This document shows, one piece after another, positions 1,030 to 44,866 of a stretch of 64,000 nt of DNA. The stretch comes from Emiliania huxleyi CCMP1516 (lineage: Eukaryota), in NCBI RefSeq assembly GCF_000372725.1, contig NW_005202113.1:1-64000 (forward strand). Reading direction: 5' to 3'. Within the stretch, counting starts at the first letter, position 1, and the number at the start of each line of letters is the position of its first letter. Both the position numbers and the translations under genes were made by a program. The notes under the pieces were generated by a model, which saw nothing but the letters and a program-made list of their open reading frames with translations, was not told the DNA's origin and did not search any database.

Positions 1030-2213
1030 TCAGCCGACCGCCTCCATCGCAGCTGGCGCCTCTGCTGGGGCGGAGGTGGGACCGTCGCGCGTGGAGACGA
1101 CCTCATCGATGAGCCCAAACTCGCGCGCCTGCTCGGGCGACATGAAGTGGTCCCGCTCCTTTGCCGATGCAATCTCCTCCACCTGCGGGGCCGGAGGCGA
1201 ACGGGTGCATGCGGGGGCGGGCGGTGGGCCGGCGAGGACACGAGTCACACGCCACTCAATGCGATGCAGCGCAGAGACTAGGGGCACCGCGATCTGCTCG
1301 CAGCGGCGGCCTCCGGAGGGATGCAGCGACTCTCTCTTTTGCGTCTCTCCTAAAGGGGCGGCTCGACCGTCCGGCCGCTGTGCGCCGCGTAGAGCCCGAC
1401 CAGCCTGCGTGCCGGCCGCGCAGAGGGGTGGTGTGAGAGCACGAGATGGGGTGAGAGGCGGGAGGCGGAGCTGCTGAGGAGAGGCTGGGCGGCGCGGAGC
1501 TGCTCAAGGGGCAGCTGCGCGGAACCAGAGGTTTGCGTCTGTGCTTTCGGCGGTGGGCACGCCGCCCCTCGAGTCCGGCCAGACGCGCGGCAGACTGCGT
1601 GTGGGGGCGCACCGCTGCTCGGGCGTCGGTATCAGCTGCTCTCGGCGCAAGAAGCGCTCGTCTCTCGTCTCTCGATACTCGTCTCTCGATAAGCTGCTCA
1701 CCTCTCTCGCGTCGCCAGGATCTCTCGAGCGTGGATCTCGATGTCGGTCGCCTGGCCGGAGACGCCGCCCGAAGGCTGGTGGATCATCACGCGCGAGTTT
1801 GGCAGCGCCCGCCGCATGCCCGGCGCGCCGGCTGCGAGCAGCAGCGACCCCATCGAGCACGCCTGCCCGACACATAACGTGGCGACCGGCGGCCGCACGA
1901 ACTGCATGGTGTCGTAGATGGCGAGGCCGGCGGTGACCACGCCGCCGGGCGAGTTGATGTACATGTAGATGGGCTTCTCCACCGACTGGGACTCGAGGTA
2001 CAGCAGCTGCGCCACCACGACGTTGCTCGTATCGTCATGGATCGGCCCGTTGAGGCAGACGATGCGCTCCTGCAGCAGCCGCGAGAAGATGTCGAAGGCC
2101 CGCTCGCCGCGCGGCGTGGACTCGAGCACCATCGGCACCAGGGCCATGCTTCGCCGCGGCGGCCGCCCGCAGAGCGGCGTGCGGCGACAGGCCGCCGACC
2201 GTATCGCCCGCAT
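1030..2213 (-). CDS. clpP: ATP-dependent Clp protease proteolytic subunit (organellar, spliced)
   Basis: Motifs [49 protein letters not shown]; exons about 2213-1702, about 1414-1373 ([10 protein letters not shown]) and about 1182-1030 ([20 protein letters not shown]). Confidence 0.93.
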
Positions 2214-4157: not shown

Positions 4158-5500
4158 CCGGCACCAACTTGATTCGTAGATCGGCGTCTCCCCCTCCCCC
4201 TATGGGCCGCCACCCCCCTTCAATCCGTAAATCCGTAAAAATCGCGTAAAAATCGCCCAAATTGAGCGTGCTGCGTGGAAGCGGCTCCAGCCGGTTCGGA
4301 GCGTGCCCCAGCTTGCGGGAGGCGATACACGGCGTGAACGAGGACTTTCGGCGACGTCAATTCCGTTGGGCTGGGACACGCGACAAGGGTCTGCTCAACG
4401 AACTCGGGATAGCCGACCTCAGTACGTTCGAGGCTTCGCTCTTGCACGATACAGGCGCGGTGCTCGACGCGATCCGAAGCACCGCTGCAGCCGCAGAGGC
4501 TGGTGTGGCGGCTTATGCCAGCTCGGCCACGAGCAATGTTGTTGTGTCCCCAAGCAGCGCTGATGTAATCTCCGCGCAGCACAAGGGCAGCTTCTCCCGC
4601 ACTCTCGTCAGCACAGACGCGCAAACCACGCGAAAGGGCTCGGACATCCATGCAGCTGTGAGTAGTGCGAGTGCTGAGATGCTGCTCCGGCAGGAGTTGG
4701 AAGAGAAGTTGCGGTCACAGACCAAGGAGCTCGCTTCTGAGCAGCGCTCTGCGGGCGCTGTGAAGAGGGCGCTCGCGTCGGCGCGGGCTGAGCTTGCTGC
4801 GGCACAAGAGCTGAGGCGCTCCGACCGCGACAACCTGAGGACAGCGCAGCAGGCTGCTAAACGCGACATCAAAGCGGCCGAGCGGATGGCCGACGAGGTA
4901 AAACACGCAGCTCGAGCTGATTTTGAGTGGCGTATCGGCGAGATGCGTGCCAAGATGCAGGCTGAGCTGCGCGAGCAGCTCGACGCGCTGCAGATTTCGA
5001 TGGAGGCAGAGGCGAGGCGCGCTGATGCCGCAGCGAGGCGGAGAGGTCAAGGCGCTGCACAACAAGATGGAGGGGATTATGCACACGCGTGAGGGGTTGA
5101 TAGTCGCACTCGCAGAGGCGCAGCTCGGCAAGCACGAATATAGTGATTGTTAAGAGATATACGTAGCGTTACAGTCGTACGGTCGTTGACCCTCCCACCG
5201 TGTGCCCTGGGCCGCCCGGACCCCAGAGCTGCGCACGTGCAGACAGCGTTGCGCGAGCGTTGGAGAGGCCAGCCTCCGGCTTCTCAGCGTGTCGCGAGTG
5301 CTGTGTCTCATATCTGCCTGGTGGATGGGTGTGGTCTAGGGGGTGTGGTGGGGGACTCCTGGTGCCGGTGGTGGCTTTTCGTTACAAATTTACGGAATTA
5401 CGCTTTACGGATTTACGGTATTTTTACGGATCGACCCCCCTCCCTCCCCGTCCCGCGGCCCGGCCGTGAGACGCCGATCTACGAATCAAGTTGGTGCCGG
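4158..5500. mobile_element. Putative non-autonomous TIR element carrying a coiled-coil gene fragment
   Basis: 33-bp perfect inverted repeat CCGGCACCAACTTGATTCGTAGATCGGCGTCTC (4158-4190 / 5468-5500) with inverted subterminal ATCCGTAAA repeats; no TSD found. Confidence 0.65.
4262..5153 (+). pseudogene. Coiled-coil protein fragment with no ATG and a frameshift near 5040
   Basis: Heptad-rich ORF 4262..5092 continues in another frame (EVKALHNKMEG...) to 5153. Confidence 0.5.
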
Positions 5501-9129: not shown

Positions 9130-9775
9130 TTTTTTTTCCTTCGCGGCAACGCAATGGCGGCAAGGCCTCTTTGCGCGCCCGCCTCGTCACGCAGAAGACC
9201 AACGGGCGTCGGACCGCGGTGAGACCGCGCCGCCCTCCGCGCCCGCCCGCGCCCGCAGCGTGAACACATACGCGCGTCCCTCGCCGCACGGAAACATACG
9301 CGCCAGCCGCGCACACAGCCTCACATGCAGCGCAGACCGCATGCCCGCGCCCTGGGCCGCCGACGACCCGGTCGGGCGGGCTGAGCGGCCGCCGCACACC
9401 ACCAGACAGGCGCACAACCACCCGCAGCGCGCCGCAGCCCACCGCGCAGCCCTGCCAGCCAAGCCTGCGCCTCCCAGCTGCACAAACCGGCGCACAACAG
9501 AGCACAGCGCACAGCACACGCCGGCGCGCGCGCAGCACACGCAGACGCGCGCGCGACCGCAACACGCACACGTACACAGCACGCGCGCGTCGCACGCCAG
9601 CGCAGCGCCACACACAGAGCACACTTCCCATCAGCAGCAGCAGCCTGCCACAATCCACATCTCACACACGCGCGCGCACGCACACTCCCCACGCCGGCGC
9701 ACGCATTGGGCGTCGCCGAGAGCTCCCAAAGCTGACTTGTGTGGCTGCTTGTGCTGCCTGCTCATGAGCAGTTAA
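9130..9775 (+). repeat. Dispersed about 650-bp repeat (second copy inverted at about 44157-44800)
   Basis: TTCCTTCGCGGCAACGC...GGCTGCTTGTGCTGCCTGCTCAT is shared between the copies, with near-identical translated ORFs. Confidence 0.85.
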
Positions 9776-13022: not shown

Positions 13023-14324
13023 CGCGCCGAAAGAAAGAAAGAAAGAAAGAAAGAAAGAAAACAGACAGCCCAAGCCGCCACCACACAGGGATTTTAAGGT
13101 GATGTTTTTTGTGCGAGGGAAAAGAATAAATAAATAAACAAAGTGCAATGGAAAATCCAAAATCCAAATCGCAAACATAGAAACCCAAACACACACAGCC
13201 ACGTGGCATGAGTAGGTTCGGGTTTGGGTGTTTTCAGTGCGTTTCAAGCGAGCCAGCCTGTGGCAGAACACTTCGCTTCGCGCTGCAGCGCTTGGGCCAC
13301 CGCCCTGGCCGTGAGCGAGCTTTTGCCGGCCACGGCGGCTACCAAGAGGATGGGCCCGGGCTCTGGCGCCGCGAGCACGGTGCCACCTCGACGTGAGTAG
13401 GCCCTGAAGCCGCCCGGCGCTCGCCGCGCTGCCCACGCCAGAGACTGGCTTGCTGCCGCACCACCTCTCGTGACTGTACTAGGCGGGACGGAGGTCGACA
13501 CTGGTCAGCACCGCGGCTGGTGACGCCGCGAGGCGCCCGCCAACTCTCGGCGACGGTGAGACGGTGCAAGATGTGCAGCTCTCGGCAGACGTCGAGGCGC
13601 TCGAGCTGCGGTGCAACGAGCCGCTCCGCTCCCGTACGACCCGCTTGTACAGTGACAAGTGGCACGGTTCGCTCCCGTCTACACGCTCGACTTCCTCACC
13701 AGGGTGCGCCGCTTGCGCGCACGCACACCTATTGCCCGCCGCACACGCGCACCCTGCCACAGACACGTCGATGTCGCGCACTGCTCAGGTGGGGCAGACG
13801 TTCCCAGGCTCGACGCCTGGGAGTGTTGTCCTATCATCCGCGCTCGTCGGCGACTCGACCGACTTCCCCAGCGAGAGTGTTGCGAGCAACAGGGTCGCCT
13901 CGGCGGCTTGAGCTGCGCAGCGACAGATCACTCCTCACCAGGCAAGCTGCGGCCCGGACGGCCGCGTCTCGTAGTTGCACACCCGTGGCGACTACGTTCC
14001 CGCGGCGGTGACAATGTCCCGTGTTGACGACGGGAGACACTGGTGTCACGCGCCGGCTTGCTTGCGGCTCGGCGCGCGCGCCGCCGCGCGTGGCGGCCGC
14101 GTGAGGCGTTGCACACCCTCGTTCGGGCGTGTGTCGTGGCTGTGTTATGTGTGTTTGGTCCTTGCCCCCAGATTTTGTCTTTTTAATAGTTTGCTACTCG
14201 CGTACTCGTGGGGAATGATCACTGGGAGACGCAAAAAAGAAGCGACGTCCGTCCTTTGAACGTTTCGCGCGAACCCACCCGCATCACGGCGCGCTGAAAG
14301 CCAGCGAGATCTCGGCTGCTCTCC

Positions 14325-16361
14325 ATGCAGGGCCTTCTCCAGGCCGGTGCCGCCGCCGCAGCCGCCGAAGGGATCGGCCTCGACGGTGATGACGCCAACG
14401 AGCCGAGTCTCACCTATTCCTACGCTCAGGCAGCCCGCCGAGCCCTCGGCGGCGCCGGGAGGAAGCGGCGCCAGAGTTTGAAGCCCGGCCAAGACAAGTG
14501 CTGGGTGGCCGGTTGCGAGTGCACCGTAGGCCTTGAGAGCATCCCTGCTTCCCGTGTGGAGGATGCCGCGTACATCATGGAGCACGAGATGGGCCTCAGC
14601 TTCACAAAAGACGGGAATCCACGTCCGCTGCCCCAGAAACAGAACAAGCTGTGCGGTACGCACCGGCCCGAGCTACCCGCGGAGCGCATCATTGGGGCAA
14701 AGGTGCTGCTTGAGGGCGACGAGTTCTTTGTCGACGCGACAGTCACGGGTCCCGCTCCGCCGCCTGCTGTGCAGCCGAGGCGGCCGCCTGGCTCTGCTCC
14801 TCTCAGACGGTGGCGTGCCACAGTCGACAGTGATGACTCCACGCGCGACCTCGACGGGGATGAGGAGGTGTGGCGTCTCTCCCGCCTGCGTAAGCTTTTC
14901 GCCACCACCACAGAGCGCTCCGAACTTGTCAAGAAGTTGAGGACCGAGGTGAGGCGCCTGCAGCGCCAAACGCGCGAGCTCAAGGCGGCGGCGGAGGAGG
15001 AGGGCGAGGGTGAGGGCGAGGGTGCTGGGCCAGACTCGAGCGCGCCTGCAGGACCACCTCCCGCCCCGACCGTGTCCTCAAAGACCGTGCGACTGCGGGT
15101 GCCTGTGCCCGAGGATTGGCAGCCACCGCAGCAGCCAATCATCTTTGAGGTGCCAGCTGGACAGGTCCGGCACTCGATGGCGAAGACATTGATGGTCATC
15201 CCTCCACCCTCGACTGTGCCTGGCGGGTTTATGCACGTCGATGTCGAGCTGAGGATTGAGGAGCCGCTACCGGTAGAGATGCCCGACAGGGGTGGAAGAT
15301 CTTCGAGGCATCTCCGTGACTACCTCGTCTCTCGTGCGTCGCAAGCCGGGCTCGAGTACTCTGCCGATGCAAACCCGCTCAACCCTCCTCGCGCATGGCC
15401 TCTGCGCGAGCAGCTCTCCTTTGCTAACTTGCGACCCGAGTACTTTGCTCTTCCAGAGCGCTCGAGGCTGTTCAAGAAGATGTTTGGCTTCGACTCGTGG
15501 GACGAGGCCATGAAGGTGTACGAGATGGTGTACCGGTGGGTCGAGAGGACGGATGGCGTGCGGCGAGCGAGGGAGGAGGGGCAGGCGGCGCTGCACCCGC
15601 GCTTCCAGTTCCTAGCGGCCCTGTGGCGAATGCGGGGATATAAAGATATCGACGAGCTCGCCTCTTTCTTTGGCCTCCTTGCCCCGCGAATGAGCGTAGA
15701 CTCTTCGCGGTGGATCCGTCGCCTCGGCCGCTTTGCGAAGGAGAACCTCGTCATCGAGCCCAAGGACTACCAGACGGTGCTCGACCTGCTGCCCAAGTCC
15801 TTCAAGGAGTGCGGCCTCGACACCGTGGTTGCCATCGGAGACTGCACCGACATCATGACCGAGACCTCACGCGAGAGCATCATGACGTCCAACCTCCTCC
15901 GTTCGGACAAGTCGAAGCACTCGGCGGCGATGGGGCTCACGTGGTGCACGCCGAATGGCCAGATCATCATCGCGACCGACCTTTTCATGGGCCGCTCCTC
16001 CGAGCACGAGGCGTGCAAGGCGTGCATCCCGGCCTTTGAGCGCATGCCGGCGAAGTTCTCAGTCATGTACGACAAGGGTGTCTCGAAGCTGCGCGTCCAC
16101 CTGCCGCACCTCAACGAGGTGATAACTCCTTGCTTCCTCAGAAAGGCGCCGCGCTTCACCATCGACCAGGGCATCCGCAACCGTGGCGTGACGTGCTGCC
16201 GCTACGTGGTGGAGGTGCCCTTCTCTGGCATGAAGGCGTGGAAGATGCTCGGCGACGTCGTGAAGGAGGAGGACAAGCCCCTGCTCAACTACGTGTGGTG
16301 GTGGACCATCGGCTTCCACAACCTCAACTGCGCAGTGCTCAAGCCGCCGTCGGGTGTGTGA
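14325..16361 (+). CDS. Transposase with THAP-like C2CH finger, HTH region and DDE_Tnp_4-type catalytic domain
   Basis: CWVAGC...LCGTH; IGDCTD, TPNG..GRSSE, MYDKG, PCFL, RYVVE..MKAWKML match ISL2EU/Harbinger-type motifs; intact 678-aa ORF. Confidence 0.88.
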   Translation: MQGLLQAGAAAAAAEGIGLDGDDANEPSLTYSYAQAARRALGGAGRKRRQSLKPGQDKCWVAGCECTVGLESIPASRVEDAAYIMEHEMGLSFTKDGNPRPLPQKQNKLCGTHRPELPAERIIGAKVLLEGDEFFVDATVTGPAPPPAVQPRRPPGSAPLRRWRATVDSDDSTRDLDGDEEVWRLSRLRKLFATTTERSELVKKLRTEVRRLQRQTRELKAAAEEEGEGEGEGAGPDSSAPAGPPPAPTVSSKTVRLRVPVPEDWQPPQQPIIFEVPAGQVRHSMAKTLMVIPPPSTVPGGFMHVDVELRIEEPLPVEMPDRGGRSSRHLRDYLVSRASQAGLEYSADANPLNPPRAWPLREQLSFANLRPEYFALPERSRLFKKMFGFDSWDEAMKVYEMVYRWVERTDGVRRAREEGQAALHPRFQFLAALWRMRGYKDIDELASFFGLLAPRMSVDSSRWIRRLGRFAKENLVIEPKDYQTVLDLLPKSFKECGLDTVVAIGDCTDIMTETSRESIMTSNLLRSDKSKHSAAMGLTWCTPNGQIIIATDLFMGRSSEHEACKACIPAFERMPAKFSVMYDKGVSKLRVHLPHLNEVITPCFLRKAPRFTIDQGIRNRGVTCCRYVVEVPFSGMKAWKMLGDVVKEEDKPLLNYVWWWTIGFHNLNCAVLKPPSGV

Positions 16362-16395
16362 GGTGTATGTGTTTCTCATTTTGTGACTCCCTTTT

Positions 16396-17271
16396 TTACT
16401 CATTAGTCATGTCTAGTTGGGCGACTGGGCCACGTCCGCCACGTCCGCCACGTCCACCCCGCTCCCGTCCTCCTCGCGACTTGCGCCGCTGCTTGCTCTT
16501 GCCCTGGCTCCGATTGAGTGTGTCGATGCTGCCAGGAGTTGGAACCGCATTCGAGGGCGTGCCCAGCTGCGGTGGCGACTCGAATGAGCGGGGTGGACGG
16601 GGCACCGGCCGTGGGCTCGAGACACCGGACGGACCCGCTGCCGCCGGCGCCGGCGACGCCTCCGCCTCCGCCTCCACCTCGGCAGCAGCCTCCGCCTCTG
16701 CGGCCGCAGCTTCCTCCGCTGCCTCGTCCGCCTCAGCTTGGGCTTGCGCCGCCGCTGCAGCTGCGAGCGCGTCTAGCCCACCGCCGCTCTCCTCGCCGTC
16801 AGCCTCGTCGTACGGTGCAACGATGAAGGGCATGTCCTTGTCGATGCACTCCTGCATCAGCCACGCCCAGAATGGCTCGGCGGGTCGTGCAGCAGTCTTC
16901 CACTCCTTGGAGGCGTCCTCGTTCCTCGCCTCCTTTGCCAGCGCCTCATCGACTGCCTGCTGGCTTGTCCCGCGCCGCCTCTCGCGCTCCTTCTTCTTTG
17001 GTGGGTACGCACGGCCATCAAGGACGAGACACACTTTGCCACCCAAAGCATAGACGCCCTGGAGGTGCTGCGTCACATACTGCTGCTGACGCTGCGAGAT
17101 TCCCTCCTGCGCCACCTGCTTCGGCTGCTTCTTCGACGCCCTGTGTGCGAGGCCCGAGATGTCGGTAAGCACCATCTTGCCGTCAAACGGGTTGTGGGCG
17201 CTGACGTGAACCAGGTCGCCGGCAGCGGGGGCAAGGATCTTGCCCTTGCCCGCACCTGAACCCCATCCCAT
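16396..17271 (-). CDS. EXO1/XPG/FEN1-type PIN 5' nuclease, N-terminal part only, followed by a low-complexity tail
   Basis: MG...GKMVLTDISGLAHRA, LVLDG..PPKK.ERERRR, FIVAPY(D)EAD align with EXO1 XPG-N/XPG-I motifs; later EDSD and GxDY motifs are absent. Confidence 0.8.
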   Translation of the reverse strand: MGWGSGAGKGKILAPAAGDLVHVSAHNPFDGKMVLTDISGLAHRASKKQPKQVAQEGISQRQQQYVTQHLQGVYALGGKVCLVLDGRAYPPKKKERERRRGTSQQAVDEALAKEARNEDASKEWKTAARPAEPFWAWLMQECIDKDMPFIVAPYDEADGEESGGGLDALAAAAAAQAQAEADEAAEEAAAAEAEAAAEVEAEAEASPAPAAAGPSGVSSPRPVPRPPRSFESPPQLGTPSNAVPTPGSIDTLNRSQGKSKQRRKSRGGRERGGRGGRGGRGPVAQLDMTNE

Positions 17272-18573
17272 GGAGAGCAGCCGAGATCTCGCTGGATATC
17301 AGCGGCCGTGATGCGCGTGGAGACTGGAGTTCGCGCGAAAGGTCAAAGGGGACGGACGTCGGTTCTTTATTTTTTTGCCTGCCAGTGATCATTCCCCGCG
17401 AGTACGCGAGTAGCAAACATTCATAAAAAGACAAAATCTGCGTGCAAGGACCAACACACATAACACAGCCACGACACACGCCCGAACGAGGGTGTGCAAC
17501 GCCTCACGCGGCCGCCGCCACGCGCGGCGGCGCGCGCGCCGAGCCGCAAGCAAGCCGGCGCGTGACACCAGTGTCTCCCGTCGTCAACACGGGACATTGT
17601 CACCGCCGCGGGAACGTAGTCGCCACGGGTGTGCAACTACGAGACGCGGCCGTCCGGGCCGCAGCTTGCCTGGTGAGGAGTGATCTGTCGCTGCGCAGCT
17701 CAAGCCGCCGAGGCGACCCTGTTGCTCGCAACACTCTCGCTGGGGAAGTCGGTCGAGTCGCCGACGAGCGCGGATGATAGGACAACACTTTCAGGCGTCG
17801 AGCCTGGGAACGTCTGCCCCACCTGAGCAGTGCGCGACATCGACGTGTCTGTGGCAGGGTGCGCGTGTGCGGCGGGCAAAAGGTGTGCGTGCGCGCAAGC
17901 GGCGCACCCTGGTGAGGAAGTCGAGCGTGTAGACGGGAGCGAACCGTGCCACTTGTCACTGTACAAGCGGGTCGTACGGGAGCGGAGCGGCTCGTTGCAC
18001 CGCAGCTCGAGCGCCTCGACGTCTGCCGAGAGCTGCACATCTTGCATCGTCTCGCCGTCGCCGAGAGTTGGCGGGCGCCTCGCGGCGTCACCAGCCGCGG
18101 TGCTGACCAGTGTCGACCTCCGTCCCGCCTAGTACAGTCACGAGAGGTGGTGCGGCAGCAAGCCAGTCTCTGGCGTGGGCAGCGCGGCGAGCGCCGGGCG
18201 GCTTCAGGCCTGCTCTCGTCGAGGTGGCACCGTGCTCGCGGCGCCAGAGCCCGGGCCCATCCTCTTGGTAGCCGCCGTGGCCGGCAAAAGCTCATACATG
18301 GCCAGGGCGGTGGCCCAAGCGCTGCAGCGCGAAGCGAAGTGTTCTGCCACAGGCTGGCTCGCTTGAAACGCACTGAAAACACCCAAACCCGAACACCCTC
18401 ATAGGAGAGCAGGAGGTGAAAGGAGGTCAGCACAAGTCCAAGGACGCACGAGCGAGAAGCACAGCAGAGCAGACAGATGACGATCACCACCCAGCGCACG
18501 ACCGCCAACTCTCCGGCGCAGGCCGCAGAACCGAGTCCGGGGGCCGACGGTCGCGGCGCGCTGGCGCGGCGCA

Positions 18574-19371
18574 GTGGACGCAGCCCGGTTCGCAGCTTCG
18601 CGAGCTACGGGGGCGGCCACGGCACGGCCCGGTGGCCGCCCCCGCAATGAGGCCAAGCGGTGGGCATCCGGCAAAAGCCGCAAGACGGGATTCGCGAAGG
18701 CGCGGGCCACCTTCTGCGGCGGAGGCCGCGGTAGCGCGGCGGCTGCGGAGAGGCACGACAGCATGATGACAAAAGCACGCTGGCGGGGCACCGAGGCAAT
18801 CGCAAGGGAGACCCCAGCGGGCTCTTTGTCGGTCGCATCGATGCCGCAACGCAAGGACTACACAAACGACGCCGAGCACCACGGCAAGTTCCAGGTGTGG
18901 CTCCAGGCAGGCAGCTTCGAAGGCAAGGCGCGTGATGGTGCGGCGGTGCGGGCAGAGCACGCCGCTCCCTTAGGCTCACACGTGTGGTTGTCTTTATAGG
19001 AGCGGCAGCAGCGGGTGAGCGCGCAGTACGAGAAGCGGGTGCTGGGCTTCGATGCGTGGCTTCAAAAGCAGGGGTATCCGTCCTTCTGCAAGGTGGTGAT
19101 GGAAAACGGCCTCGCCAAGCTGGAGATCATTGTTGATGCGGTCACCGGGCTTCCGCGTGTGTTTGCGGTGGAGGCGTGGATTGAGTTCTGCATCGGCATG
19201 ATGACCGGCGATGTGGAGAAGGGCGGATGCAGGGAGCTGCGAGCTAACACGGAGCTGTACGCCACGGCGCTCCATGGCCGCTCGCAGGCGGAGGTCCAGA
19301 TGCCGCTCGAGAAGAAGGGGAAGTTTGGGTGGGGGCCATACAAAGACGATCCCTTCAAGCTGCAGAAATAA
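18574..19371 (+). pseudogene. Spliced orphan coding fragment, 3' end abutting the repeat array
   Basis: Coding-like codon usage; apparent intron about 18946-19000 (GTGCGG...TTTATAG); the stop lies inside the family A repeat end. Confidence 0.35.
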
Positions 19372-20980
19372 ACAAAGTGCAGCAGAAAATCCAAAATCCA
19401 AATCGCAAACATAGAAACCCAAACACACACAGCCACGTGGCATAGGAGAGCAGGAGGTGAAAGGAGGTTAGCCAAGTTCCAAGCACAAGGACGCACGAGC
19501 GAGAAATATAACGGACATCCCAAGCTAGGGCTGGGTCGAGGACAGACACGTCCCCACCTTTGCAGGATTTTGCAAAAGCGACGGGGCAGGGCGCATCGCC
19601 GCGCGGATAGGGCTGGCTCTTCGGCCCGGTGGGGGGCGGGTAGGCTCTGTGTAGCGACGCTTCTTGCGCGCGAATACTACTCGCATAATGTAGGTAAACC
19701 ATAAAAGTAGATTTGAATACGCCCACGTAAGGCTTCGTGAGTGGTTGGGGTGGCCTCAAGCATCCCCAAGGGAGCCTCTGCGGTGCCACATAAGCAGCTT
19801 AGAATAAATAGAGCAGACAACGACCTTGCCAACAATATACATGTAGTACCTAAAACCCCTGGTAAAAAAAAGAAAGAAAGAAAACGGACAACCCAAGGGA
19901 GGGATGGGAGGACGGCACGCCGCCAGAAAGAAAGAAAGAGAACACACAACCCAAGGGAGGGATGGGAGAACGGCACGCCGCCACCACACAGGGAATAAAT
20001 AAAACGCGCACGCCAAACGAGGGGTGGGAGAAGGACAGGGTCCCCACCTGCACACGAGCAGGATCTTGTAAGGACGATCAGGGACACAGGGGAACGGGAG
20101 CGGGGAGCGCATCGCGACACGGAGGGGGGCTGGATAAATAAAACGGGCACGCCAAACGAGGGGTGGGAGAAGGGAGAAGGACAGGGTCCCCACCTGCACG
20201 AGCAGGATCTTGTAAGGACGATCAGGGACACAGGGGAACGGGAGCGGGGAGCGCATCGCGACACGGAGGGGGGCTGGGCAGGGTTCACCCACACGACAGG
20301 GATAGGACAGGTTGCACCCGGCGGCACGGGGGCAGGCGCGGGCCTCCTACTGGTTGAACAAATAAAACGGTCAAACAGAGAAGAAGATGAGTACTGAGAA
20401 ATAAATAAACAAAGTGCAGTAGAAAATCCAAAATCCAAATCGCAAACATAGAAACCCAAACACACACAGCCACGTGGCACATAGCACATAGGAGAGCAAG
20501 GAGGTGCAAGAATAAATAAAACGGGCACCTCTGCTAGGAGATGGCTGATGGGTAAAAAGGAGCAGAAATTGTCGGTGTATGTGCAGGGTTCTTTGTAGGG
20601 ATGGTCGGCGACTGTTCTTTGTAGGGATGGAATAAATAAAAACGGACACCTCTCTACTGTGAGGTGGGTTAGGGTAAAAAAGAACCAGCAAACACCGCAA
20701 CAGGTCCCCGCCCTTGCGATCTTAAATAAATAATAAACAAAGAGTTGGACAAATACCAAATTCCAAATCGCAAACATAGAAACCCAAACACAGGCGGCGA
20801 CGTGGCATACGAGCAATAAATAAAACGGGCAAGCCAAACGAGGGGTGGGAGAAGGACAGGGTCCCCACCTGCACGAGCAGGATCTTGTAAGGACGATCAG
20901 GGACACAGGGGAAAGGGAGTGGGGAGCGCATCGCGACACGGAGGGGGGCTGGGCAGGGTTCACCCACACGACAGGGTCCC
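19365..20980 (-). repeat. Head-to-tail stack of about 12 retroelement-like ends from 4-5 families
   Basis: On + each module opens with (AAAT)n or (GAAA)n plus AAAC; modules match solo copies at 2453, 6310, 8631, 13030, 24364, 42950 and 61803. Confidence 0.8.
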
Positions 20981-44156: not shown

Positions 44157-44800
44157 AATGAGCAGGCAGCACAAGCAGCCACACAACCCAGCTTTGGATG
44201 CTTGGTTGCTCACGGCGACGCCCAATGCGTGCGCCGGTAGGGGGGAGTGTGTGCGCGCGTGTGTGAGATGTGGATTGTGGCAGGCCTGCTGCTGCTGGTG
44301 GGAAGTGTGCTGTGTGTGTGGCGCTGCGCTGGCGTGTGGCGCGCGCGTGCTGTGCGCGTGTGCGTGTTGGATCCGCGTGTGCGTCTGCGTGTGTTGCGCG
44401 CGCGCCGCCGGTGTGTGCTGTGTGCTGTACTCTGCTGTGCGCCCTGTTTGTGAGTCTTTGAGGCGCAGGCCTGGCTGGCAGGGCTGCGCGGTGGGCTGCG
44501 GCGCGCTGCGGGTGTTCGTGCGCCTGCCTGGTGATGTGCGGCGGCCGCGCAGCCCGCCCGACCGGGTCGTCGGCGGCCCAGGGCGCGGGCATGCGGTCTG
44601 CGCTGCATGTGAGGCTGTGTGCGCGGCCGGCGCGTATGTTTCCGTGCGGTGAGGGACGCGCGTATGTGTTCACGCTGCGGGCGCGGGCGGGCGCGGGGGG
44701 CGGCGTGGTCTCACCGCGGTCCGACGTCGGTTGGTCTTCGGCTTGGCGAGGGCGGGCGCGCAAAGAGGCCTTGCCGCCATCGCGTTGCCGCGAAGGAAAA
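44157..44800 (-). repeat. Second copy of the 9130-9775 repeat
   Basis: High identity by eye. Confidence 0.85.
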
Positions 44801-44866
44801 AGAATCCTATTTTTTAGCTTAATTAATGGGAGAAAAGGAGAGGGAGCTAGACCCAGGGTCCAACAA

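Follow-up and report, generated by a model that had tools for sequence, protein, structure and literature searches.

When a DNA transposon carries a nuclease gene beside its transposase gene, what does the nuclease do for the element, and could nucleases of unrelated folds do it equally well? The question is raised by an element at positions 13210-18400 of the stretch analysed here (the window: 64,000 nucleotides of Emiliania huxleyi CCMP1516, contig NW_005202113.1, positions 1 to 64,000), which an original prediction had read as an ISL2EU-type transposon carrying an EXO1/XPG-family nuclease in place of YqaJ. In our view, the element is likely one copy, with an internal deletion, of a multi-copy transposon with two genes, in which a DDE transposase of PHIS type has as its partner an EXO1-like nuclease of the transposon's own, joined to a SWIM-type module; this nuclease is predicted to resect the 5′ strands where the transposase has cut. 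The available portions of the literature searched give no job for the second gene of ISL2EU, and two unrelated folds in one slot, sharing only 5′-to-3′ nuclease chemistry and a SWIM-type module, make the accessory role directly testable. The element and its genes are laid out as follows.

13210..18400, 5191 bp: whole element, from the alignment of its inverted arms
13210..14327, forward strand: left terminal inverted repeat (TIR), 1118 bp, with the transposase ATG (14325-14327) as its inner end; likely promoter and 5′ leader
14325..16361, forward strand: PHIS-type DDE transposase, intact, 678 aa; DDE_Tnp_4 at E 5.5e-06, above the Pfam cut-off
16396..16811, reverse strand: the accessory gene's C-terminal tail, of low complexity, continuing the reading frame of the remnant and agreeing in frame and sequence with the tail of the SWIM open reading frame (ORF) of metagenome contig L001
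16808..16811, reverse strand: deletion junction with 4-bp microhomology, from other-strain contigs that diverge here from both sides and from L001
16808..17271, reverse strand: 5′ part of the accessory gene (EXO1/XPG-type N-region and helical arch, through APY), 47-52% identical to complete relatives over residues 1-160
17269..18400, reverse strand: right TIR, 1132 bp, with the nuclease ATG (17271-17269) as its inner end

In the window, the second gene is a convergent ORF (17271-16396, reverse strand, 291 aa), and its stop lies 34 bp from that of the transposase. The EXO1 motifs claimed for it are present as far as the N-region goes, with XPG_N-type motifs (Pfam E 0.022, below the cut-off; its relatives pass XPG_N and XPG_I) and equivalents of D30, D78, K85 and R92, but a whole nuclease it is not. 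After APY, the relatives continue into I-region motifs (EADAQL...DSD), while the window protein runs into Ala/Glu-rich sequence; the I-region is deleted, and the "APY.EAD" that had been taken for an EXO1 motif is a product of the deletion junction, its acidic residues coming from the far side. The I-region carboxylates, the helix-three-turn-helix (H3TH), the SAP-like helices and the SWIM module are all missing, so that the window copy lacks the complete set of N and I regions. The nearest named protein to the nuclease N-part is EMIHUDRAFT_222732 of the same strain (97% identical).

The missing sequence can be followed in contigs from elsewhere. A contig of another strain (run X3) departs from the window at 16808 and continues as APYEADEQL, three other-strain contigs extend 312, 570 and 697 bases beyond 16808, and an 1840-base contig (run X6) includes 1430 bases before 16811 that are missing from the window. 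L001 is 97% identical to the window over 15568-16811 and then enters an ORF containing a Cys/His motif of SWIM type. The four bases shared at 16808-16811 point to an in-frame deletion by microhomology, in which the window nuclease gene lost at least 1430 bp, and probably about 2 kb in all. Judged against the complete relative P0078, described below, some 610 codons are missing from it, and we therefore estimate the intact element at about 7 kb. Another run, X1, has a different deletion with the same end point (a joint 16811-17167 with 84 other letters). By its sequence, then, the window copy is an internally deleted member of a multi-copy two-gene transposon, with a nuclease that we predict to be dead. 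An intron after APY was also considered for this copy and was ruled out, there being no I-region exon downstream in any frame. Two side observations concern gene structure in relatives. L001 has a probable short intron in its second gene at about 1861-1930 (reverse strand; donor position uncertain) that is not found in P0078, and P0095, from another family, looks like a similar internal deletion, with the nuclease N-part fused to a conserved C-terminal helix.

P0078, which came from a library-wide search with P0025 as the query, gives a view of the full-length nuclease: 897 aa in a single frame. The best solved relative of its N-terminal 254 residues is human EXO1 (3qea, E 4.5e-14; for FEN1, 4.9e-05), and its residues D39, D87, E159, D161, D183, D185 and D242, together with K94 and R101, align opposite the catalytic and arch residues of human EXO1, whose functional roles are established. 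Intact family members have the seven carboxylates, the basic arch residues and the H3TH by which EXO1/FEN1/XPG nucleases are recognised. In an alignment (A6) of 15 nuclease relatives with 35-66% identity to P0078, equivalents of D78, K85, R92, E150 and D152 occur in all 15 rows, D171 in 12, D173 in 13, and D225 in all five of the rows that reach that site. It had been recognised that full-length copies might turn out to encode YqaJ as the real partner; Pfam finds XPG_I only, and no YqaJ, in P0078 and P0249. Thus, the proposal that a 5′ nuclease fills the YqaJ slot stands for the family, but not for the window copy, which is a deletion remnant.

The C-terminal half of the protein connects the family with ISL2EU in another way. 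Residues 529-768 of P0078 are 40-44% identical to the ORFs of L001, a likeness which indicates that the nuclease N-part and the SWIM part belong to one gene type, and at about 445-478 there are two predicted helices that we take to be a SAP-like pattern, on which Pfam is silent. The ESM Atlas gives residues 500-690 a score of 0.92, from 173 shared features, against a SWIM cluster of animal proteins, 28% of whose members bear PF04434; the score of 0.88 for the SWIM part of L001 serves as a lead only. The closest Atlas models are animal clusters with YqaJ/alkaline-exonuclease on 98-100% of members, at template modelling (TM) scores of 0.55-0.57 and aligned outside YqaJ or any named family. We read the SWIM part of P0078 as probably identical in kind to the module found beside YqaJ in second genes of ISL2EU type, taking the animal clusters to be ISL2EU proteins, and the predicted order in the family nuclease is an EXO1-like core, then SAP-like helices, then a SWIM-type module. 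This is also a warning for annotation, as such transposon genes carry the label "exonuclease 1" in metagenomes.

Is the nuclease simply the EXO1 of the host? The trees argue that it is not. A careful tree of 38 rows, without a FEN1/XPG outgroup, was made from 11 relatives, the window protein and 26 EXO1-like proteins taken from the 105 in a quicker tree. The 12 transposon-type rows fall on one side of a branch and the 26 on the other, with support 98/96; most of these 12 bear that label by kinship, without a seen transposon context. In the quick tree of 120 rows, the division is 15 against 105 (support 98). Identity to the tree-nearest EXO1-like proteins of cellular type is 26-29%. The nuclease is, as far as these alignments indicate, a group of its own and distinct from host EXO1, and the possibility that it would prove near-identical to the host enzyme has fallen away.

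The transposase answers to its description as an intact DDE ORF. Its catalytic triad is D506-D583-E630, with a probable helix-turn-helix (HTH) at about 390-475 and a THAP-like finger (C59/C64/C110/H113). Han et al. (2014, PMC4122938, in the portions available) give the PHIS pattern as D(19-29)K(29)D(18-40)D(11-19)P(18-28)R(3)E, and the window protein matches it with D506, K531, E560, D583, P602, R626 and E630 (spacings 24, 28, 22, 18, 23 and 3), E560 standing for the second D. Among 16 family members, Pfam reports DDE_Tnp_4 in 13 and HTH_Tnp_4 in 6 (best E 7.2e-05); the C-x4-C...C-x2-H finger is conserved across the transposase alignment, with Pfam THAP silent on the window protein and the 16 members. 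The structural searches gave less. The best VIA structural match is a sigma-4-like HTH (Z 5.9), a profile search of the PDB with the transposase alignment returned coiled-coil noise only, the predicted local distance difference test (pLDDT) of the AlphaFold model is below 50 in the DDE core, and Foldseek with this model found nothing at E 0.001. Residues of about 120-185 (14680-14880, forward strand) are confidently modelled as a beta-barrel, with weak Foldseek rows to Tudor, PWWP and SAWADEE (E above 0.1), and the model makes a chromatin-reading domain inside the transposase possible.

Relatives of the transposase form 23 clusters, 10 of them with 62-98% core identity and, in addition, a distant set that includes Prymnesium polylepis. 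None of the named ISL2EU, Spy, Pangu or Nuwa transposases is among the homology-search matches, and the transposase tree spans this lineage only. The window and L001 differ by 7 synonymous and 6 non-synonymous changes over 263 transposase codons, numbers too small to weigh. Metatranscriptome contigs span most of the transposase and 16986-17176, but DNA carry-over is possible in such data, and we therefore make no claim of expression.

If the two genes form a functional pair, one would expect to find them together in other families, as the original prediction had proposed. On contigs of at least 4.7 kb there were 25 records of the transposase and 9 of the nuclease, and we compared these, scoring contigs of equal size from the same source against a null of 1000 shifted offsets. 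Three same-source contig pairs of identical size (5633, 6561 and 16752) were found, each joining the P0005 transposase cluster with a P0078-type nuclease; the null has a mean of 0.023, and none of the 1000 offsets reaches three matches. This second family is 53% identical to the window in the transposase and 47% in the nuclease N-part. A further pair at 3055 nt (P0010/P0077) was dropped, since the null for short contigs has a mean of 0.34 and covers it. Sizes can also coincide by chance, as a match at 4654 between different sources shows, and for both reasons only the three long matches were used. The pairing of transposase with nuclease thus appears to be supported in two families, one by DNA (L001 and the window) and the other indirectly. 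Among metagenome contigs, 195 pattern matches yielded two loci, L001 and L002, the latter a short, distant transposase piece without neighbours. No related locus was confirmed in viral contigs, none was found in genome contigs, and plasmids gave no tblastn match.

The element itself is well delimited, and its 5191 bp and TIRs of about 1.1 kb agree with what had been predicted. The arm alignment is identical in 1087 of 1137 columns (about 96%), with an identity between left and right of 95% over the outer 200 columns, 99.3% over the middle 680 and 86% over the inner 257. The final 12 nt on the inner side are the same in both arms, the last three being the ATG of each gene, so that each gene owns a copy of one upstream region, a feature that the original prediction had overlooked. 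The predicted AT duplication is also present, and the target-site features are these:

13208..13209, no strand: left copy of the AT target-site duplication (TSD), from sequence, a single-AT empty paralogue and AT in 7 of 8 other flanks
18401..18402, no strand: right copy of the AT TSD, from sequence
19366..19486, forward strand: paralogous empty site of the high-copy target repeat, where direct repeats D3 and D4 meet across one AT

In the empty paralogue, a single AT (19442-19443) lies between left-flank and right-flank sequence, and the empty form of the target repeat occurs in other sequencing runs too (loose ends behind 13209). No second copy of the element was found within the 64-kb window by sequence comparison. 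The window stretch, or part of it, is contained in 15 public runs, 9 of which have half of its words or more. In four runs compared with the left end of the element, at least 8 contigs, from three of the four, join the element end to a different flank, some of them possibly being two sides of one insertion. AT adjoins the terminal GAG, with which the element ends begin, in 7 of the 8 other-flank contigs listed; among these 7, AT is bordered on its outer side by C five times and by A and T once each, and the window site is C|AT|A. The family is multi-copy with an AT target, since contigs show other flanks, mostly with AT, beside the element end. As every end abuts AT, a 2-bp duplication and a blunt insertion between A and T (with an element ending T...A) look the same in sequence.

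Several known systems share parts of this arrangement. In maize MuDR, each of the long TIRs has a promoter, and the two genes are transcribed towards each other; unlike the algal element, MuDR has a Mutator transposase, a 9-bp TSD, TIRs of about 0.2 kb and a second gene that is not known to be a nuclease. In AcademX, an Academ lineage, the nuclease is of XPG type and fused within the transposase protein. AcademX is likewise a DDE transposon with an accessory nuclease, but it belongs to another superfamily with a 3-4 bp TSD, whereas the algal nuclease is a separate convergent gene. Given this XPG identity, an XPG nuclease as a transposon accessory would not be new in itself. The available portions of PMC10045372 describe AcademX as having an accessory nuclease and a different TSD length. 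Kolobok offers a precedent for one transposase superfamily that exchanges unrelated nucleases between lineages, with a lambda-exonuclease in KolobokE, a DEDDh nuclease in KolobokD and a His-Me nuclease in KolobokP (PMC9587614, in part); its transposase differs from the algal one, and the portions available mention XPG 0 times. Compared with cellular EXO1, the algal nuclease shares with the human enzyme (3qea) the nuclease core, all catalytic carboxylates and the basic arch residues, but it forms a separate branch, and a SAP-like/SWIM C-terminal half replaces the EXO1 tail.

The closest comparison is with ISL2EU. Han et al. (2015, PMC4482050, in the portions available) describe an AT duplication in A|AT|T, a THAP-HTH-DDE transposase, a YqaJ second gene and TIRs of 6-259 bp starting with GG, in animals only. 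The algal element is similar to ISL2EU as described in the available parts of PMC4122938, PMC4482050 and PMC9179366 in its AT target, its two ORFs and its DDE_Tnp_4 transposase, and a HTH_Tnp_4 domain and a THAP-like C2CH finger would be further likenesses; the second gene is a 5′-type nuclease in both, and the SWIM-type module appears to be common to the algal and the animal YqaJ-bearing proteins. In contrast to ISL2EU, the nuclease has the EXO1/XPG fold and not that of YqaJ/lambda, and it precedes the SWIM module; the TIRs are 1118 and 1132 bp long and start with GAG; the target is mostly C|AT and not A|AT|T; the host is not an animal; and the intact length is estimated at about 7 kb, against about 4.8 kb. 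As three features that define ISL2EU are absent (YqaJ, the TIR form and A|AT|T), we do not file the element as a member. The element is a genuine transposon of two genes, its accessory nuclease having the EXO1 fold; it resembles ISL2EU and would work in the same way, a comparison drawn from its features.

How might the nuclease serve the element? Twin promoters, one in each 1.1-kb arm, would drive convergent transcription of the two genes, as in MuDR, so that enzyme and helper would be produced jointly. The transposase, with its THAP-like finger and HTH on the ends, would cut and paste into AT, and the SAP-like and SWIM parts would hold the nuclease at the element or at the transposase. Resection in the 5′-to-3′ direction at the donor break might then channel repair towards the use of the sister chromatid or homologue as template, by which the donor copy would be restored and the element multiplied. 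Where such copying is cut short, deletion copies like that in the window would result; the window copy could still be a source of transposase but would depend on nuclease provided in trans. Both EXO1 and the lambda-type exonucleases digest duplex ends 5′-to-3′, and for this reason we favour donor-break resection as the likeliest job of the nuclease among the mechanisms considered, at a little under an even chance. The microhomology deletions fit aborted gap repair without proving it. More generally, an EXO1-like gene in the slot of an unrelated animal exonuclease points to a 5′ nuclease as a likely requirement for the mobility or multiplication of these elements.

The nuclease could also be a direct subunit of the cut-and-paste machinery that trims the 5′ non-transferred strand or flap after nicking, or cleans the insertion junction, and helps to set the AT target. 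Enzymes of the EXO1/FEN1 fold do cut 5′ flaps besides ends, and the two genes, each starting where an arm of the shared repeat ends on its inner side, would be expected to be expressed equally, but the lambda-type exonuclease that is the ISL2EU counterpart acts on duplex ends and not on flaps. TSD length in Academ lineages has been linked to the accessory helicase or nuclease (PMC10045372, in part), which speaks for such a role; Spy, the sister group, mostly has a single ORF (PMC4122938, in part), which speaks against it, since transposases of this kinship can thus do without a nuclease. We consider such a direct role conceivable but somewhat doubtful. Very improbable, and largely refuted, is the idea that the nuclease gene is captured cargo, a Pack-MULE-like fragment of host EXO1 with no role in transposition. 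The window copy has a broken nuclease next to an intact transposase, and long GC-rich TIRs with convergent inner ends recall cargo-carrying Mutator elements; against this, the nuclease has only 26-29% identity to the nearest EXO1-like proteins of cellular type, its own branch and many diverged forms in which the catalytic residues are kept, as well as a fusion to a transposon-type SWIM module and a pairing repeated in a second family that is 47-53% identical. It is unlikely, too, that a catalogue such as Repbase or Dfam already lists the family (as an algal ISL2EU or Harbinger, for instance) and that curators know of its XPG-type gene. The host genome has been public for years, and Repbase curators have, in the sources partly available, described many accessory nucleases (Kolobok lineages and AcademX). 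However, Han et al. (2015, PMC4482050, in the portions available) screened CCMP1516, named no family from it and reported ISL2EU from animals only, the species name appearing once across the three supplementary files, in the genome list. Moreover, no PHIS element with an XPG/EXO1 gene as partner was found in the literature searched, which included the available parts of PMC5718144, PMC5499597, PMC12730594, PMC11304231 and bioRxiv 2021.09.26.461848, with Repbase and Dfam outside its scope; PMC9963178 and bioRxiv 2023.08.08.552548 had no bearing on the matter.

Several points weigh against the pairing of a transposase with a resecting EXO1-like/SWIM nuclease. The activity of the nuclease, the expression of the intact gene and its requirement in transposition are predictions, and single-gene transposons yield deletion derivatives too, so these are no proof of resection by the nuclease. 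Pfam matches neither SWIM nor SAP in the accessory proteins of the family, the structural rows from the Atlas lie just below the tool's bar for naming a family, and the AlphaFold model of the SAP-SWIM half has a pLDDT of 30. The full nuclease gene was assembled from contig overlaps and a relative, none of the DNA records read spanning a whole intact element, and the second-family pairing was deduced from equal contig sizes, pairing evidence being available for only 3 of the 21 relatives in the transposase tree.

A broader reading of the two-gene transposon, which we advance tentatively and below even confidence, is that it represents a separate, old algal PHIS group in which the SWIM-type module is the constant docking unit, the nuclease can be exchanged (of the EXO1 fold here, of the lambda fold in the ISL2EU elements of animals) and 5′-to-3′ resection is a required step, with the Emiliania family co-expressing both enzymes from twin promoters in its 1.1-kb TIRs. 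If true, this would mean that element-encoded 5′-to-3′ resection is required in a transposition pathway. The host alga is abundant worldwide, and the family is multi-copy, has flanks that vary between strains and retains an intact transposase, so it should probably be feasible to obtain active copies.

Some features of the surroundings deserve mention. The target repeat is a very high-copy short module, with contig depths in the thousands, and has a GCCACGTGGC palindrome directly before AT. Between 19360 and 21000 it forms part of a patchwork of short modules that meet at AT or AATAAA; the stretches concerned in the window are 13128-13209, 18401-18445, 19366-19486, 20399-20510 and 20728-20813, and they are possibly nested non-autonomous elements. 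A BTB/POZ-domain gene (12941-11727, reverse strand, Pfam E 2.9e-07) starts about 270 bp to the left of the element, whose insertion thus sits in the upstream region of that gene. Runs X2 and X6 contain contigs of a different element with about 46-70 bp of subterminal sequence in common with the TIR (13244-13289), by which it would be a related family in the same species. Finally, a pair of 650-bp inverted repeats, 90% identical and 34 kb apart, lies at 9130-9765 and 44158-44804.

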